In this document: positions 5,198 to 60,275 of the stretch, piece by piece | Position numbering within the stretch: position 1 is the stretch's first letter | How the letters are laid out: each line of letters begins with the position of its first letter | Assembly (NCBI GenBank): GCA_040756875.1 | Contig: JBFLYH010000002.1 | Span: forward strand, 254,526-318,525 | Reading direction: 5' to 3' | DNA length: 64,000 nucleotides | From: a candidate division FCPU426 bacterium | GTDB taxonomy: Bacteria; Oederibacteriota; JAAXVQ01; JAUVAV01 | The notes under the pieces: model-generated | The model's input: only the letters and a program-made list of their open reading frames with translations | What the model was told of the DNA's origin: nothing | The model's database searches: none | Translations under genes and position numbers: made by a program

Positions 5198-7249
5198 CTA
5201 CCGCCGCTTCCGCGCCGTTTTCGCGCCTTTGGCTTCCGCGGACGACTGGATTTTTTCCTTGCGATAGGCGCTGGCGATCAATTTCCGCATTTTTTCGGGC
5301 GGATAGCGCCGGTTGAACCTATCCTGCACGGCATTCCGGGTTAGCGGTGTTTTCAGCGTCCTGGGATTCAGCGCGGTGACAGCCGCCCGCAACAACTGGC
5401 CGCGGATCTTCGTCGCCTCCGTGCGGCTGACGCCCAATTCTTCCCGAATGTCCTCGCAAGTCAACCGTGCCAGGTCCGTCACCCGGAGAAGTGCGCGTTT
5501 TTTTCCCAATCCCTTTTCCATATAAGGGCGGAACCGCTCAAATCCGGCCAGCGACTGGTCCTGGATGCCCGCAGCGGCCAGCTGGCCGAGCAGTTGCGCC
5601 AGACGGTCAGCCACGAGCGGGCTATCAAAGAAAGAAACCTGGCCATATGCATGGCGCCGCGGCGAGCCGAGGCTGGCCACGGCCTTCTCGTTGACCGCAC
5701 GGAAAAAAACATCGGCCCGTCTACCGTAGAGGGCGCCGGTTTCCGGCAGGGATTGGGTAAACACCACAGATTCCTCGTTTTCCACATCAGACACGTTGCC
5801 GCTGCCAGACTGCTCCTGGTCAACACCCGATCCGTCGCCGGCAGTCGGCGTCGTGCAAGCGCGAAGAAAGCGCCCCAGAACCACCATCTGGTCTCCGTAA
5901 CCCTCGTATTCCTCGAAAACGAGCGCCACCTCCTCGATCCCGACATTCGGGGTCTTGGCGATCACTTTCAGTAGATCGTATTTGATGGCAGGGGAACCGG
6001 GCCATCCCGTCAGCGTAAAATTCTTGATCTGTTCGTGAGCGAGCATGCGGTAATCGGCCGAAACGTAATTCCAGGTATTCATGAGGCGCGCGTACTCGGC
6101 GTAATCGGGAATCTGACCGACGTCGAGGCGGAGCGCCTCGGCCGTCTTGGCCAGGTTTTCCGGCATATACAAATCGTTCAAAGGGATGAAACGCGGCCGG
6201 TATGTTTTAAATGTGGTGACGTGGGTCGTTTCCAAGGTTGCCTCGACGCAAAACCCCGGGATCGAAGCCGGCCGGTTGACCACGAGAAAAAATTCCTGAA
6301 TCCCCTCCAATTGCCGCATGCCCTGGGCAAAGGAAAATTTGCTCTGCTGGATGTGCGGCCGGGGCTGCACATGAAACACGACCCGGTTGGTCCCCAGGTG
6401 GTATCCCTGCAGCAGACTGTAAATATGATTCAGGCTGGTCGAGTGCGACAGGGATTCCCGCTTCTCGCGGGAGAGGTCGATGTTCGTCACTTGCTGGCTT
6501 TGCTGATTGTTGCGCGACGTGGTTCCCCATTGCCCGGTGTTCGATACAGAACCCTCCGAGGACTCGGACGACTGGTACGAATCCTCATTGCTCCATTGGG
6601 CGACCCCAAACGCCGCGCTGCCTCCCTCGGTTTGGCTTCCCCCCGATCCCCGGCTGGAGCCCCAGGAGGAGGCCGATCCGGTGTCCAGGTCGTAATTTTC
6701 GCTGCTGACTGTATCGGTCATCTGTTTACCGACATTGACGTTGTTTGCGGACTGGCTGAGAATCTCCCCGCTTTCGGTGACCGCCTCATACATTTCGCGT
6801 TTGGTCGGTTCGAAGGCGGAAACATAGGGATAATCCTCGAGGGGAACGGGCCCTTCCGCTTTGGGCAGGATACTGACCTGCAACAAAGCGCCGAAACAGG
6901 GCAGGCACTGATCCATACCCGGGATGTCCACCAGGGCGGCGCCGCTTTCATAGGGCATGTTCAACTCGTCTATATAGTGGGCATACTCGGCGATTTTGCC
7001 GCCAATCTCGTCGTCTTTGGCGAGAAAGCTGCTGATGGTGCACACTACTTTGAGATAGGTCACCTTGCGCTGGCAGTATTCCGGAGGCAACTCGGCGGGC
7101 TCATGATAGAACACGGCGATCGAGGATTTCCACATGGCGGGAAACGCCGCTCCGGCGTTTAGTTTGCTCTGGGCATCGATCATGTTCTTCGATACACCCA
7201 TGCGTTTCCAGGGAACATTGACCGGCAAAGACATTTCCGTGAATGACAT
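5198..7249 (-). CDS. Uncharacterised 683-aa protein with central Ser/Thr/Gly-rich segment, upstream of Rhs gene
   Basis: Long ORF (track 5198..7486). Likely start is ATG 7249 (MSFTEMSLP) preceded by GGAGGGG. No family recognised. Confidence 0.8.
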   Translation of the reverse strand: MSFTEMSLPVNVPWKRMGVSKNMIDAQSKLNAGAAFPAMWKSSIAVFYHEPAELPPEYCQRKVTYLKVVCTISSFLAKDDEIGGKIAEYAHYIDELNMPYESGAALVDIPGMDQCLPCFGALLQVSILPKAEGPVPLEDYPYVSAFEPTKREMYEAVTESGEILSQSANNVNVGKQMTDTVSSENYDLDTGSASSWGSSRGSGGSQTEGGSAAFGVAQWSNEDSYQSSESSEGSVSNTGQWGTTSRNNQQSQQVTNIDLSREKRESLSHSTSLNHIYSLLQGYHLGTNRVVFHVQPRPHIQQSKFSFAQGMRQLEGIQEFFLVVNRPASIPGFCVEATLETTHVTTFKTYRPRFIPLNDLYMPENLAKTAEALRLDVGQIPDYAEYARLMNTWNYVSADYRMLAHEQIKNFTLTGWPGSPAIKYDLLKVIAKTPNVGIEEVALVFEEYEGYGDQMVVLGRFLRACTTPTAGDGSGVDQEQSGSGNVSDVENEESVVFTQSLPETGALYGRRADVFFRAVNEKAVASLGSPRRHAYGQVSFFDSPLVADRLAQLLGQLAAAGIQDQSLAGFERFRPYMEKGLGKKRALLRVTDLARLTCEDIREELGVSRTEATKIRGQLLRAAVTALNPRTLKTPLTRNAVQDRFNRRYPPEKMRKLIASAYRKEKIQSSAEAKGAKTARKRR

Positions 7250-7326
7250 GGCGCCCCTCCCACGTATTGACTGCACGACGGGCTCTATTGTTATACGGCA
7301 GTGGGCAAATGGCAATGGATTTCCCG

Positions 7327-7461
7327 ATGGAGCCCCCCGGCCGAAGGGCCCGGGGCACCTCCTCTGACCTCGGCACCTACTGCCTGGGCAGGGCGACATC
7401 CCCGAAGCAGGAAGATACGCATTCCTCCCCGCGCATGCGCGGGGTTCCCTGCAAAGGGGAT
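7327..7461 (+). repeat. ~130-bp structured repeat, copy A (ATGGAGCC...GGCGACATCCCC...GGGGAT)
   Basis: Shares ATGGAGCC, a 21-nt hairpin, YACC, GGCGACAT and a terminal ATCCCC/GGGGAT stem with copies at 48764, 57416, 57546 and 57969. Confidence 0.85.
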
Positions 7462-7516
7462 GGAAGGTTCGCTCCGGAAAAGGCAACGTCGAAGAAGGGC
7501 GGCGTTTCGAAACCGC

Positions 7517-48524: not shown

Positions 48525-48556
48525 GGCTGGGCCTCGCGAAGCGGTATTGGGCTTAG

Positions 48557-48685
48557 CAGGCTGATGAAAAAGTCCGCAGAGCGGTCTTTTTCGATTGCGT
48601 TGCGTGGAATACCCCATGAAAAATCAGAGTTTTTCACGGGGTAACAGCGTGCTAGCGGAACACATATGGGTTTTTCAGCACCCTG
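48557..48685. mobile_element. MITE-like element (129 bp)
   Basis: Terminal IRs CAGGCTGATGAAAAA / TTTTTCAGCACCCTG (13 of 15 match), flanked by TTAG direct repeats (48553-56, 48686-89). Confidence 0.7.
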
Positions 48686-48763
48686 TTAGTATAAACCCGT
48701 GCTCAGGGCGGCGCAACCGGAGACGCGGTTTTTTGCGTGCAACCCGCAATGAGCTGACTTATG

Positions 48764-48890
48764 ATGGAGCCCTACGGCCTGTAAGGCCGTAGCACCCTGC
48801 CTGCCATGCGCATCAAGCATGGCAGGGGGCGACATCCCCGCAGCGGAAACGTTGGATTTATCCCCATACGATTTCTTCTGCGAAGGGGAT
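48764..48890 (+). repeat. ~130-bp structured repeat, copy B
   Basis: ATGGAGCC-CTACGGCCT gta AGGCCGTAG-CACC...GGCGACATCCCC...GGGGAT. Confidence 0.85.
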
Positions 48891-57057: not shown

Positions 57058-57417
57058 TCACTCCTTGGGTTCTGCGGGCGGCGGAGGCGGCGTAAGCTTC
57101 CGCAGCAACTGCTCGGTGCGTTCGGCTTCTTCGTCGACTATAAAATGCAGTTCCGGCAGCACGCGCCATTCCACTCGCCGCCCGAGCTCGTGCCGGATGA
57201 AGCCCGCGGCGTGCGCCAGCCCCTCCTGGGTCTGGCTGCGCTGTTCGCCGCTGTCCAGGGTCAGAAAGTAGACTTTCGCCTCCCGCAGATCCGGCGTGAT
57301 CTGGGCGCGCGTGATCGTGACCCACGACAGGCGCGGGTCGGAGAGCTTGCGCAGGAGGATGTCCGAGATTTCCCGCACCAGCTGCGAGGCCAGGCGGTCA
57401 ATACGTTTGGGTTTCAT
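57058..57417 (-). CDS. rbfA: Ribosome-binding factor A
   Basis: RIDRLASQL, DPRL, DLREAKVY, AAGFIRHEL, PELHF. Confidence 0.95.
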   Translation of the reverse strand: MKPKRIDRLASQLVREISDILLRKLSDPRLSWVTITRAQITPDLREAKVYFLTLDSGEQRSQTQEGLAHAAGFIRHELGRRVEWRVLPELHFIVDEEAERTEQLLRKLTPPPPPAEPKE

Positions 57418-57677
57418 GGAGCCTCCCGGCGGTCTTGGCCGGGATACCCCCCTTTCAATTCAGATAATCGCCAGTGGCAGGGCGACATCCCCTAGGCCGG
57501 GCGATTCCTTTCATCCGGCAGAGGCTGTTGTCCACGGCATAGGGGATGGAGCCTCCCGGCGGTCTTGGCCGGGATACCCCCTTTCGTTTTCATGATACTT
57601 CTGGAGCCAGGCGACATCCCCGAAGCAGTCCATCCCTGGCTCTAATGCGAACGGACGGTCGGTCCTGCGAAGGGGAT
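57416..57677 (+). repeat. ~130-bp structured repeat, tandem copies C1 (57416-57547) and C2 (57546-57677)
   Basis: Both begin ATGGAGCCTCCCGGCGGTCTTGGCCGGGATACCCCC; joined head-to-tail sharing the dinucleotide AT. Confidence 0.92.
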
Positions 57678-57688
57678 GGGGGGTGCGG

Positions 57689-57970
57689 TCAGCGCAACTC
57701 AAAGGTGTGGTCCACGAGTTCGGCTTCATGGAACAGGTCGAGCAGTTTCAGGGCTTCGTTCAACGTGGCGTTGGCCTCGCGGCTGCTGGTGTTCACGCAG
57801 GCCACCGCGATCCGCGACCGCTGCCAAAGGTCCTGGTGTTCGACCTCGGCCACGGACACGTTGAGCTGCTGTTTCAGGCGCTCCGTGATTTTGCGCAGCA
57901 GCATCCGCTTGTCCTTCAGGCTGTGATTCTCGGGAAAAAACAGTTCACCACTCAACAGGCCGATGACCAT
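57689..57970 (-). CDS. ylxP: DUF503 (YlxP) family protein
   Basis: HSLKDKR, NVSVAEVEHQDLWQR; located between infB and rbfA. Confidence 0.9.
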   Translation of the reverse strand: MVIGLLSGELFFPENHSLKDKRMLLRKITERLKQQLNVSVAEVEHQDLWQRSRIAVACVNTSSREANATLNEALKLLDLFHEAELVDHTFELR

Positions 57971-58100
57971 GGAGCCCCCCGGCGGTTTACGCCGGGGTAC
58001 CCCCCTTTCGAGTCAAATCATCTCTGGTGGCAAGGCGACATCCCTTGCGCCGGGCAATTCGTCTTTTTAACAAGCGACCGGTGTCTCCGGCGCAAGGGAT
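57969..58100 (+). repeat. ~130-bp structured repeat, copy D
   Basis: ATGGAGCC-CCCCGGC ggtttac GCCGGGG-TACC...GGCGACAT; terminal stem ATCCCTTGCGCCGG/CCGGCGCAAGGGAT. Confidence 0.9.
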
Positions 58101-58112
58101 CATCAGGTCCAC

Positions 58113-60275
58113 TCAGAGCTTCTGCGCCACGGCTTCGAGGACGAACGCTTCGATCACGTCCCCGGGTTCGTACGCTTTGAATCCGCTCACAGACAGCCCG
58201 CATTCCATGCCCGCGGGCACTTCCTTGGCGTCGTCCTTGAACCGTTTCAGGGACTCGATCTTGCCGGTGTGCAGGATCTGGCCGCGGCGCACCACCTTGG
58301 CCTGCGCGCCGCGCGTGATTTTGCCGCTGGTGACCTGCGAGCCCGCGGCCGTGACGCCCGAGGACAGTTTGAACACGTTGCGCACCTCGGCCTGGCCGAT
58401 CGGCACTTCGTGGTAATGGGGCTCCAGCAGGCCCTCCATGGCCGCCTTGACGTCCTCCACCACGTCGTAAATCACCGAATAAATGCGCACGTCCACCTGC
58501 TCGCTCTGAGCGACCTTGTCCACGCCGGCTTCGGCCTTGACGTTGAAGCCGAGCACAATGGCGTTGCTGGCCGTGGCCAGCAGGATGTCGCGCTCCGTGA
58601 TGTTGCCGACCGCGCTGTGAATGCTGGTCAGGCGGACCTTCTCGGTGGACAGGCCCTCCAGGGAGTTGGCCAGCACCTCGGCCGACCCCTGCACGTCCGC
58701 CTTGATGATGATTTTCAGCTCCTTGATGGTGCCTTCCTTGATCTGATCCCTGAGGTTGTCCAGGTTGATTTTATGGCTGTTGCTCAGGTCCTGTTCGCGT
58801 TTGATCATCTGCCGCTTCATGGCGATCTGCCGGGCGAGCTTGTCGCTGGCCAGCACCTGGAACAGGTCGCCGGCCGTGGGCACGCCCGAGAGACCCAACA
58901 CCTCGGCCGGCATGCCCGGCCCGACGGACTTGAGCGCCGCGCCGCGTTCGTTCATCAGCGCCCGCACGCGGCCGAACTGCACGCCGGTCACCACCGGGTC
59001 GCCGACGTTGAGCGTGCCGCGCTGCACCAGCACCGTGGCCACCGGGCCGCGGCCGCGGTCCAGCTTGGCCTCGATCACCGTGCCCTTGGCGTGGGCCTTG
59101 CGGTTGGCTTTGAGTTCGAGCATTTCCGCCTCGAGCAGGATCATTTCCAGCATTTTCTCCAGGCCGATCCGCTTCTTCGCGGAAATTTCCACGAAGATCG
59201 TTTTGCCGCCCCATTCCTCGGAAACCAGGTTGTACTTGGTCAGTTCCTGGCGCACCCGGCTGGGGTCCGCGCCGGGCTTGTCGATTTTATTGACCGCCAC
59301 GATGATCGGCACATTGGCCGCCTTGGCGTGGTCGATGGCTTCAATGGTCTGCGGCTGCACGCCGTCGTCGGCGGCCACCACCAGCACCACCACGTCCGTC
59401 ACCTGGGCGCCGCGGGCGCGCAGGGTGGTGAACGCCTCGTGGCCCGGCGTGTCAAGGAACGTCACATACCCTTTGGGCAGCTTGACCTGGTAGGCGCCGA
59501 TGTGCTGGGTGATGCCGCCCGCCTCGCCGTCCATGACGTTGGTTTCGCGGATGGCGTCCAAGAGCGAGGTCTTGCCGTGGTTGACGTGACCCATGATGGT
59601 CACCACCGGCGGGCGGGGCTGCAAATCCTCGGGTCGGTCCGCGACTTCTTCCTGGGCCAACAGGTCTTCCCCGTATATTTCCTCATATTCGGGCTGATAG
59701 CCGTATTCGGACAAAAGAATTTCGATGGTGTCCTGGTCCAGGCGCTGGTTGATGGTGGCGAACACGCCCAGGCCCATCAATTTTTTAATGACTTCAGCCG
59801 GCTTGACGCCCAGGCGTTCGGCCACTTCGCCCACGTTCACCGTGCTGGGCAGGCGCAGGGGCGGCAGGTCTTCCTTGGCTTTGGGCGGCGCAGCCACGGC
59901 GACCGGCGCTGGTGCCTTGACCGGTTCGGGTTCGGGTTCCGGCTCGTACAGCGGCTCGGGTTCGGGAACATACACGGGTTCGGGACGGCTGGGGGCCGGC
60001 GTTTCGATCGGCGCCGGTTCAACAGCCGCCGGAACCGGCGCGGCCACGGCTTCGGCCGGCCGCGGCGCCATCTGGGTCATGCCCGGAACCATTGCGTCCT
60101 CGGGGATCTCGTCCTCGCCCCAATGGCGCTTGATGTAAGCCACGGTCTCGTCCTCGAGCACGCTCATGTGGCTTTTAACCTGGATGCGCATTTTCTCCAA
60201 TTCGCCCATCAGTTCCTTGGAGGTCAGCTTCAATTCCTTGGCCAATTCGAATACGCGTACTTTTTGGTGCGTCAT
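58113..60275 (-). CDS. infB: Translation initiation factor IF-2
   Basis: [44 protein letters not shown]. Confidence 0.98.

Follow-up and report, generated by a model that had tools for sequence, protein, structure and literature searches.

Repeats in a candidate division FCPU426 genome as a probable family of non-autonomous IS200/IS605-type elements

Five co-oriented copies of a structured repeat, each 127–135 nt long, lie on the + strand of a 64 000-nt stretch of DNA from a candidate division FCPU426 bacterium (the window; table 1), which raises the question of what kind of element they are. A first-pass annotation had offered two answers: a mobile structured ssDNA element of the REP/HUH-substrate type, or a scaffold RNA with two variable guide-like segments. 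A gapped pattern (ATGGAGCC, 15–30 nt, YACC, 20–45 nt, GGCGACATCCC) found all five copies on the + strand where that annotation had placed them, compared with no matches in 100 dinucleotide shuffles. A module 1 of 72–73 nt in each of the five copies and a head-to-tail pair with one AT in common, both described earlier, were also confirmed. We conclude that the repeats are probably (at roughly 0.7) a family of non-autonomous IS200/IS605-type elements, PATE-like and of the peel-and-paste kind, about 130 nt long and read on the reverse complement of the + strand.

The source genome (G000, 3.22 Mb) carries about 40 copies (40 nhmmer matches; 38 covariance-model matches at E ≤ 0.01) and a genome of the same genus (G001, hereafter the congener) at least 68; both genomes are 100% complete. 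The repeat family is present in seven of 10 other genomes of the same taxonomic family and was found in none of 30 further genomes from the order and phylum. Copies were also seen in tandem and within other repeats. The loops, once thought unique to each copy, define subfamilies when viewed genome-wide, and 10 of 40 copies in the congener have a partner more than 95% identical at a different locus. A 19-mer scan of a genome collection yielded 70 loci, mostly single chance matches in unrelated GC-rich genomes, and only multi-copy records were used. About half of the 26 matches from a metagenome search represent a simpler short relative, which, on our reading of the sequence, appears to combine GGAG with CCAC; the remainder look like chance matches. 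Rfam gave no match within the window at the gathering threshold. For 12 copy-bearing loci searched in E-value mode, the sole match at gathering score was an unrelated FMN riboswitch, with the matches that overlapped copies, all in locus L030, far below gathering. In the literature naming the phylum we found no account of this family or of such elements. The earlier statement that this is not a known family is therefore right for the sequence, which has no Rfam match, and wrong for the kind of element, which is already known: the sequence family is a new member, undescribed in this uncultivated group as far as we found.

Covariation was assessed in an alignment of 89 copies from seven genomes (88 distinct rows). 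All seven pairs of the first (right-end) hairpin change on both sides, bearing out the covariation first read from the window, as do seven of eight in the module 2 stem. Stem cells are 95% paired and the observed covariation values were reached by none of 500 shuffles. About 74 of the 89 rows carry a G-N-A/G-N-A internal loop in the module 2 stem. A three-way junction closed by tandem G.A mismatches, also proposed in the first pass, found no support: the helix ATGGAGCC/GGCGACAT, which is almost invariant so that covariation is uninformative for it, changes on both sides in none of six pairs, and position 1 covaries instead with the Y of YACC. Folding of the arm of about 30 nt is not a general feature: it surpasses shuffles at z < −2 in only 17 of 84 copies, and neither C nor E of the window is one of these.

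The ends carry the more telling features. On inspection, the termini ATGGAGCC... and ...GGGGAT are not reverse complements, so that the element lacks terminal inverted repeats. Nearly all copies have the right hairpin. A left hairpin that ends in GGGG beside the guide occurs in 35 of 86 and is absent or decayed in the others, including window copies B–E. Both hairpins take the same form (CCCCGNN, loop, NNCGGGG) and lie in direct orientation.

Comparison of the source genome with the congener gave three loci that are filled in the latter and empty in the former (L078 versus C2:389921, L068 versus C1:358205 and L160 versus C2:348437), with a single AT at each empty site; at the empty site for L068, one of the three, the predicted motif is absent. 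Two further candidates, L091 and L172, were too diverged for a clean reading. A flank profile was drawn from 60 canonical copies among 87 distinct ones. After the 3′ AT come R (49/60), R (57/60) and A (36/60), and the 5′ AT is preceded by C in 29/60. On the top strand (the reverse complement of +) this flank reads YYAT, followed by the proposed cleavage and then often by G. The transposon-adjacent motifs (TAMs) of ISGst are TTCAT and TTTAT (PMC10055086), and ISDra2 prefers G after TTGAT. AT on both sides formally also fits a 2-bp target duplication or a recombinase core; a search for a two-base target duplication by way of variant ends (GT... versus ...GT) gave no consistent match.

At the left end, the two bases before CTGC are Watson–Crick complementary to two flank bases in 35 of 65 AT-ended copies, a count reached by none of 5000 shuffles (15.2 ± 3.1, maximum 26), although the shuffle and Fisher figures overstate independence because the copies are related. 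Three guide/flank classes make up these matches: CC/GG (14), TC/GA (11) and TT/AA (10). An alignment-free regular expression gave 30/50, compared with 15.6 ± 2.7. Among copies with an intact left hairpin, 21/28 are complementary and the fourth guide position fits in 27/28; among those lacking one, 14/37 are complementary. The rule is broken in 30 of the 65 copies, including B, C and E of the window. The guide positions agree with those of IS608 (A+16:T−3 and A+17:T−4, with the third target base unpaired). By sequence complementarity, the right guide GGTA/GGTG fits the terminal CCAT under the same rule; its complement is TACC in 44 and CACC in 18 of the 88 distinct rows, and the pairing of element position 1 with the Y of YACC is biased accordingly (A/T 49, A/C 11, G/C 10, G/T 5; odds ratio 8.9, p = 5e-4). 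Both ends thus appear, from sequence, to recognise their cleavage or target motif through a guide lying 5′ of the hairpin foot.

The proposed top strand is the leading-sequence strand (lagging-strand template) in 34 of 40 copies, with replichores assigned from GC skew and gene strand (binomial p = 8e-6), a bias that is confounded with gene orientation because 85–95% of genes are co-oriented with replication. A lagging-strand-template bias is reported for the IS200/IS605 family. Folding of the + strand had been favoured in the first pass, but the two strands fold equally well, and stem G.U versus A.C counts are 44 and 34. Flank conservation, guide geometry and strand bias agree in pointing to the opposite strand, and we take the reverse complement of + as most likely the active one. 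One point counts against this reading: the purine-rich G.A loops show conservation on the + strand and would suit a structure formed there. Overall, the filled and empty sites, the lack of terminal inverted repeats, the guide complementarity and the strand bias support the earlier proposal of a mobile structured ssDNA element acting as a REP/HUH-type substrate.

Table 1. Repeat copies in the window and the parts of copy A. Positions are those of the window; the − strand is the proposed active (top) strand.
Feature	Position	Strand	Remarks
Copy A	7327..7461	−	Most complete window copy; 112.9 bits
A, right-end terminus	7327..7334	−	Top strand GGCTCCAT; near-invariant across the 89 alignment rows
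A, right-end subterminal hairpin, proposed IPR	7335..7355	−	The 21-nt covarying hairpin of the first-pass annotation; 7/7 pairs change on both sides, 95% of cells paired
A, proposed right guide GR	7356..7359	−	CACC on +, GGTG on top; four bases 5′ of the IPR foot
A, variable arm (32 nt)	7360..7391	−	Hairpin here (z −2.66), not family-wide
A, conserved GGCGACAT	7392..7399	−	Top strand ATGTCGCC; joins right-end and left-end halves
A, left-end half (module 2)	7400..7459	−	Outer stem CCCC-GNA-GCAG/CTGC-RNA-GGGG around apical hairpin and guide
A, apical hairpin CCCCGCGCATGCGCGGGG, proposed left subterminal hairpin IPL	7427..7444	−	Same form as IPR; folds in DNA fold
A, proposed left guide GL	7445..7448	−	TTCC on +, GGAA on top; 5′ of the IPL foot
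A, AT plus flank GG, proposed TAM/CL	7460..7463	−	CCAT on top; proposed cleavage after T
Copy B	48764..48890	−	Divergent region between rtcB (start 48617, minus) and a PolX/PHP gene (ATG 48898, plus); no intact IPL
Copy C	57416..57547	−	Begins with the AT of the rbfA start codon (57415–57417, minus); no intact IPL
Copy D	57546..57677	−	Head-to-tail with C, AT in common; on top, terminal CCAT of D, then C directly
Copy E	57969..58100	−	Between infB (stop 58113) and a DUF503 gene; 135.9 bits; begins with the AT of the DUF503 start codon (57968–57970, minus)

Copy A, placed between two minus-strand genes and some 77 nt upstream of where the gene ending near 7249 starts, illustrates the proposed arrangement. 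Its left guide GGAA predicts the target CCAT, and the flank at 7460–7463 is indeed ATGG on the + strand, or CCAT on the top strand. The last four bases of GGCTCCAT, CCAT, are the proposed transposon-encoded cleavage motif (TEM/CR), with which the right guide GGTG would pair if the IS608 rule applies. In other copies, GGCGACAT is the insertion point of a nested mini-element. The congener likewise has a copy between rtcB and the PolX/PHP gene, where copy B lies. Copy C is probably immobile, and the module 2 stem of copy E is Watson–Crick throughout. Contigs from three DNA sequencing runs over 57200–58300 showed neither joints nor variants, and none crosses the tandem pair.

We looked for an enzyme that could move these copies. 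The window encodes no mobilising enzyme, as had been stated, and none with matching ends emerged anywhere we searched. No autonomous relative sharing the ends lay near 12 Y1 or IS110 loci, whose flanks were searched with the element HMM and for end motifs. The 20 genome-collection matches were all short elements, the 26 metagenome matches had no ORF between the ends and four viral-contig matches were all due to chance; these searches required near-exact motifs, so a diverged partner could have escaped them. Neither the source genome nor the congener has a canonical TnpA of about 150 aa or a TnpB (PF07282, with zero matches in the source genome). The IS110 DEDD domain (PF01548) is absent from both, the two most copy-rich genomes, and present in one of the 11 genomes of the family. 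Their only Y1 genes are two of 336 aa (in the source genome at C1:1039783–1040793 and C1:1033649–1034659), which are TIRYT-like (TnpA_REP-like) and each flanked by its own 26–28-nt inverted repeats; nhmmer found no element copy at the Y1 loci even at E ≤ 10. Since Y1 genes are present in all 11 family genomes, including three without the element, their co-occurrence with it is uninformative.

These Y1 genes could suggest that the repeats are not IS200/IS605 derivatives at all but host-associated repeats of the REP/REPIN type, serviced by the RAYT-like (TIRYT) proteins of the genome. That the two TnpA_REP-like genes are the sole HUH Y1 genes of the source genome and the congener fits this explanation, as do the intergenic location of the GC-rich hairpins and the conserved tetranucleotide at the hairpin foot. 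We nevertheless consider it quite improbable: the Y1 genes are bordered by their own inverted repeats and not by the element, REP-like sequences were reportedly not found near the genes of subclass 2.1, the two hairpins are direct whereas those of REPINs are inverted, and the element has distinct left and right ends together with a target motif. A small element could also be moved by a conservative site-specific recombinase (serine, IS607-like; tyrosine; or IS110 with a bridge RNA), its circular junction GGGG-AT-GGAGCC recombining at targets that have the AT core and a few adjacent bases in common with it. Such an enzyme would explain why AT stands on both sides of the copies and once at empty sites, why AT-R-R-A, the 3′ flank, is similar to ATGGA at the 5′ end of the element and why tandem copies have AT in common, and some IS110-family elements insert between a ribosome-binding site and a start codon. 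A fixed core does not, however, predict that the flank varies together with a tetranucleotide inside the element, beside a hairpin foot, at positions that follow the IS608 rule. The IS110 DEDD domain was found in one of 11 family genomes and in neither of the two richest in copies. We rate a recombinase as very improbable.

The least probable explanation in our view is that the repeat acts primarily as RNA, either as a cis-acting leader on the minus strand (a G-rich Shine–Dalgarno-like stretch inside a hairpin, CTCC, AUG) or, on the + strand, as a scaffold RNA or a small antisense RNA. The positions of the copies lend it some colour, in that the ATG of the antisense gene uses the element's AT in 13 of 89 rows, and of the 46 rows having a called gene, 32 have its start no more than 33 nt away. 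The rbfA and DUF503 positions are common to the congener (the rbfA starts being aligned with relatives), one copy at these sites has lost the hairpin and retains GGGGGG-CTCC-ATG, and the G.A motifs are conserved on the + strand. Several observations count against a primary RNA role. The genes downstream of the copies have no relation to one another; copies are found in tandem, within other repeats and in both contexts; transposition is shown by the empty sites and by near-identical copies spread over many loci; Rfam has no match; and the stem G.U and A.C counts carry no strand signal. The scaffold-RNA version does not hold for a further reason: the target is tracked by the tetranucleotide beside the hairpin foot and not by the loops, with IS110 absent from the source genome and the congener. 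An RNA role need not compete with mobility: a mobile element could have been put to such use secondarily.

Returning to the non-autonomous IS200/IS605-type reading, we envisage an element made of a left end fused to a right end, with no gene between. On the active strand, 5′ to 3′, the left part would comprise the target YYAT, a cleavage site, CCCC-TNC-GCAG, the 4-nt left guide, the left hairpin, a linker and CTGC-TNC-GGGG. The right part would follow with ATGTCGCC, the variable arm, the right guide GGTR, the right hairpin, GGCT-CCAT and a second cleavage site. From IS608 we infer, by analogy, which enzyme acts, that a circular intermediate forms and where cleavage occurs: an HUH Y1 transposase, provided in trans, would bind both hairpins on ssDNA at the replication fork and locate each cleavage site through pairing of guide and tetranucleotide. 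The strand would then be cut out as a circle and pasted 3′ of a YYAT that matches the left guide. With YYAT followed by G as the target, many copies lie exactly on the start codons of co-oriented genes, whose ATG then takes its AT from the last two bases of the element.

A more specific version of this scheme is speculative and, we think, unlikely: that the repeat is an orphan, recently active element for which the enzyme is not a canonical IS200 TnpA but the Y1 proteins of TIRYT type (TnpA_REP subclass 2.1, which have a DnaA-like HTH), naturally retargeted by guide mutation and acting as a portable translation-initiation region. If true, TIRYT mobilisation would give that enzyme class its first substrate, the CC, TC and TT guides with their GG, GA and AA targets would amount to natural reprogramming of target choice, and landing on start codons would provide genes with both the AT of ATG and a G-rich ribosome-binding stretch.

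The broader reading gives a conspicuous repeat of an uncultivated lineage a concrete explanation. Natural copies display the guide-to-target complementarity established in vitro for IS608, with three guide classes side by side. There are practical consequences for annotation, as copies on start codons create spurious N-terminal extensions (the ORF at 5198–7486 reads through copy A) and tandem pairs break assemblies. Core genes, rbfA and the DUF503 gene among them, may also have their ribosome-binding sites altered by copies.

It remains to place the repeat among known systems. It shares with MITEs derived from DDE transposons a small size, a lack of coding capacity, a multi-copy intergenic distribution and insertion polymorphism. 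A MITE is bounded by terminal inverted repeats and usually by a fixed-length target duplication, whereas here the termini are not inverted and the flank is matched to an internal guide. With the REP/BIME/REPIN–RAYT systems it has in common GC-rich intergenic hairpins, a conserved tetranucleotide at the foot and an HUH Y1 enzyme presumed to act in trans. REPs are single palindromes of 20–40 nt and REPINs inverted pairs, whereas the present element, at about 130 nt, has distinct ends and its two hairpins are direct. RAYT genes are bordered by their own REPs; this element does not flank the Y1 genes.

The repeat is closer to the PATEs of Haloquadratum walsbyi, which are described as without inverted terminal repeats or target duplication, with near-terminal palindromes that are alike, and as too short to encode a transposase (PMC3119063); PATE-like elements of Geobacillus stearothermophilus are described as multi-copy and mobilisable in trans (PMC10055086). 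Our element also lacks terminal inverted repeats, has similar near-terminal palindromes and is too short for a transposase, and it hosts a nested mini-element much as PATEs are targets of smaller nested repeats (PMC3119063). It differs in that the ends of PATEs are common to identified IS605-type transposons in the same or related genomes, whereas its own autonomous relative was not found; its sequence is unrelated, an additional outer stem encloses the left guide and hairpin, and it carries the conserved ATGTCGCC block. The organization of the ends is that of IS608 and ISDra2: subterminal hairpins on a single strand, a proposed 4-nt guide 5′ of each hairpin foot and distances that are comparable (15 nt here versus 19 nt at the left end, 8 nt versus 10 nt at the right). 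The guide of those elements pairs with the cleavage tetranucleotide at positions 1, 2 and 4, leaving A at position 3 unpaired, ISDra2 shares the preference for G after the cleavage site and the IS200/IS605 family the lagging-strand-template bias. In contrast to IS608 and ISDra2, the element has neither tnpA nor tnpB, we infer its cleavage sites and enzyme, its target is YYAT rather than TTAC or TTGAT, and several guide classes coexist naturally.

The repeat most likely works like, and is, a palindrome-associated transposable element (PATE) of IS200/IS605 type. The first-pass annotation had offered, as the first of its alternatives, a HUH-type single-strand substrate, which was the right general class, and the family it described is real. 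All five window copies were read in the sequence at the places it had named, and a gapped pattern written from its description matched five times in the window and not once in 100 shuffles. The searches it had proposed, with a covariance model against the genome, relatives and Rfam, extended the family to about 40 copies in the source genome (G000; 3.22 Mb, 60% G+C, 7 contigs), in which the window occupies C2:254526-318525. Iterated nhmmer gave 40 hits, 32 on the contig + strand, while the covariance model R1, built from the five window copies, gave 38 at E≤0.01. Among 40 relatives scanned, R1 matched seven of the 10 that belong to the same family and none of the 30 drawn from elsewhere in the order and phylum; matches numbered 68 in the same-genus relative G001, 17 in G006 and 2–6 in each remaining positive genome. 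The relatives with many copies carry the label Candidatus Omnitrophota. Rfam gave no match to the window at gathering score and no relevant match in E-value mode for 12 loci carrying copies, and literature searches on the phylum yielded no earlier description.

Structure was assessed in an alignment of 89 copies from seven genomes, aligned to R1 and including one locus twice. The covarying stems stood up: two-sided changes occur at 7/7 pairs of the first hairpin and 7/8 pairs of the module 2 stem, 95% of stem cells are paired, and none of 500 shuffles attained the observed covariation values. These hairpins are therefore real single-strand structures. The proposed three-way junction is probably wrong and does not hold for the family in general, since its closing helix ATGGAGCC/GGCGACAT is almost invariant, with no covariation support, and only 17/84 copies have an arm (about 30 nt) whose folding surpasses that of shuffles. 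Stability does not discriminate between the strands, being equal on both as RNA and as DNA, and the stems hold 44 G.U against 34 A.C. The choice of the + strand as the folding strand is probably also mistaken.

The ends of the element form no inverted repeats. The three bases 3' of the 3' AT are R (49/60), R (57/60) and A (36/60), and the base preceding the 5' AT is C in 29/60 copies, so that the reverse complement reads YYAT, then the element, then G in about half of cases. Transposon-adjacent motifs of IS200/IS605 elements have this shape; published examples are TTCAT and TTTAT for Geobacillus elements (PMC10055086) and TTGAT, followed by G, for ISDra2 integration (PMC5934647). BLAST comparison of the G001 copies with G000 gave three readable filled/empty pairs, in all of which the empty site is a single AT and the filled site AT, element, AT; in two (L078 and L068) that AT is part of an opposite-strand start codon. 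L091 and L172, also considered as candidate pairs, were set aside as too divergent to read. In G001, 10/40 copies match a copy elsewhere at more than 95% identity, against 0/36 in G000, where nearest-neighbour identity has a median of 72%; on these sequence identities the family has been recently active in the congener and is older in G000.

In IS608, according to PMC3201880 and PMC5934647, four bases 5' of each subterminal hairpin foot pair with the cleavage tetranucleotides (A+16:T-3, A+17:T-4), the third target base remaining unpaired. We applied this rule to the reverse complement of the element, the proposed active strand. At the right end, GGTA or GGTG, recorded in the first-pass annotation as YACC, precedes the first hairpin, and the element ends in CCAT; the two agree at 3/3 pairing positions, and the base left unpaired is A. 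Element position 1 (A/G) covaries with the Y of YACC (T/C; odds ratio 8.9, p 5e-4; A/T 49, A/C 11, G/T 5, G/C 10). At the left end, the tetranucleotide 5' of the module 2 apical hairpin differs between subfamilies, and its first two bases complement the two flank bases past the AT in 35 of the 65 copies that end in AT, compared with 15.2 ± 3.1 (maximum 26) when flanks were shuffled among copies 5000 times. The main guide/flank classes are CC with GG (14), TC with GA (11) and TT with AA (10), and an alignment-independent regex gave 30/50 against 15.6 ± 2.7. Where the apical hairpin is intact, complementarity reaches 21/28, with a fit at the fourth guide position in 27/28; where it is not, 14/37 are complementary. 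The right-end hairpin and the apical hairpin share form and orientation. Close relatives differing at one guide base differ matchingly in the flank (L023, TTTC/GA; L032, TTTT/AA). The guide-like parts are these tetranucleotides at the hairpin feet; the variable loops to which that role had been given are probably not.

Copies C, D and E lie within a minus-strand operon, nusA-infB-DUF503-rbfA-nrnA-truB. Both intergenic positions, at rbfA and at DUF503, are also occupied by copies in G001; in G005, G006 and G007 these regions are short and lack the element. With a crude ORF caller, the element's AT forms part of an antisense gene's ATG in 13/89 rows, some of which could be upstream in-frame ATGs and not true starts; a gene was called in 46/89 rows, its start within 33 nt in 32/46. 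Copies beside start codons give rise to spurious N-terminal extensions. In the window, one longest ORF passes through copy A. The DUF503-rbfA gap holds three copies in G001 and two in the window.

Coordinates of features discussed in the text
Feature	Position	Remarks
Copy C	window 57416-57547	first two bases are AT of rbfA start codon; start confirmed by alignment with relatives
Copy E	window 57969-58100	first two bases are AT of DUF503 start codon; start confirmed by alignment with relatives
ORF through copy A	window 5198-7486 (minus)	79 codons ahead of likely true start (MSFTEMSL..., near 7249)
infB/DUF503 copy in congener	L141 (G001:C1:944947-948225), ~1380-1500	right-end hairpin lost; GGGGGG-CTCC-ATG immediately 5' of DUF503
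Filled/empty pair	L078 (G001)/C2:389921 (G000)	
Filled/empty pair	L068 (G001)/C1:358205 (G000)	
Filled/empty pair	L160 (G001)/C2:348437 (G000)	
Y1 gene, L145	G000 C1:1039783-1040793	TIRYT-like
Y1 gene, L146	G000 C1:1033649-1034659	TIRYT-like
Second mini-element, nested in main-element copies	G000 C2:877114-877297, C1:1466291-1466470, C2:601713-601897, C3:15440-15560	
Second mini-element, CGAAGGAAGTCCC ... CCGGTCGG	G000 C2:~702930-703200, C3:~214290-214420	
Dispersed ~137-nt repeat	window 48553-48690	adjoins copy B
Dispersed ~137-nt repeat	G000 C2:172405-172703	interrupted by main-element copy
FMN riboswitch (111.7 bits)	L041 1692-1818 (relative G004)	adjoins element copy; unrelated to finding

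The search for a partner enzyme found none. Of the co-occurring genes suggested for checking, Y1 HUH genes are present, in 11/11 family genomes including three without the element, while domain searches of G000 found neither a TnpB-type nor an IS110 DEDD domain. The only two Y1 genes of G000 each encode 336 aa with a C-terminal HTH or DnaA-like domain and are flanked by their own 26–28-nt inverted repeats beginning GGGG; that of the second gene (L146) has 15–22 dispersed occurrences in G000, resembling a separate REP family. The two genes correspond to TIRYT (TnpA_REP subclass 2.1) as described in PMC6006769. The element HMM and end motifs found nothing at 12 Y1 or IS110 loci, scans of genome, metagenome and viral collections returned short elements or chance matches only, and contigs over the tandem region showed no joints.

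Several other repeats were seen. The ~137-nt repeat gives 30 BLAST pieces in G000 and about 40 in G001. AT-richer metagenome contigs (L197–L222, e.g. L198, L207 and L215) carry a simpler relative of the element, sometimes in tandem, with the same module 2, a module 1 cut to one hairpin and the end ...GGGGAT then taaa; GGAG and CCAC apparently stand at the corresponding places, as read from sequence with the hairpin foot uncertain, in further support of the right-end pairing. The second mini-element, of about 50 nt (45–55) with GGCGAC on both sides, forms arrays in tandem and is nested in several main-element copies, inserted after the GGCGAC block or within hairpin loops.

In 34/40 copies the proposed active strand coincides with the leading-sequence strand, the template for lagging-strand synthesis. 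This bias is inseparable here from selection by gene orientation; the strand bias of genes in this genome is very strong (85–95% of genes co-oriented with replication by GC skew). A lagging-strand-template bias is reported for the IS200/IS605 family in PMC6006769 and PMC5027513. The family adds a member to a known kind of element; its wider interest is in natural copies whose guide classes follow their targets, and in the mobilisation of such an element in a genome whose Y1 proteins are solely of TIRYT type. PATEs, as defined in PMC3119063 (its Tables S8 and S9 list their ends), have no inverted terminal repeats, near-terminal palindromes and no target duplication, and are too short for a transposase. 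The element fits that definition, though the AT on both sides would formally also suit a 2-bp duplication. One defining feature of the class is lacking, as in the searches made its ends were shared with no identified autonomous element. The same source reports that PATEs of Haloquadratum are themselves targets of smaller repeats, which the GGCGAC-flanked mini-element found here resembles.
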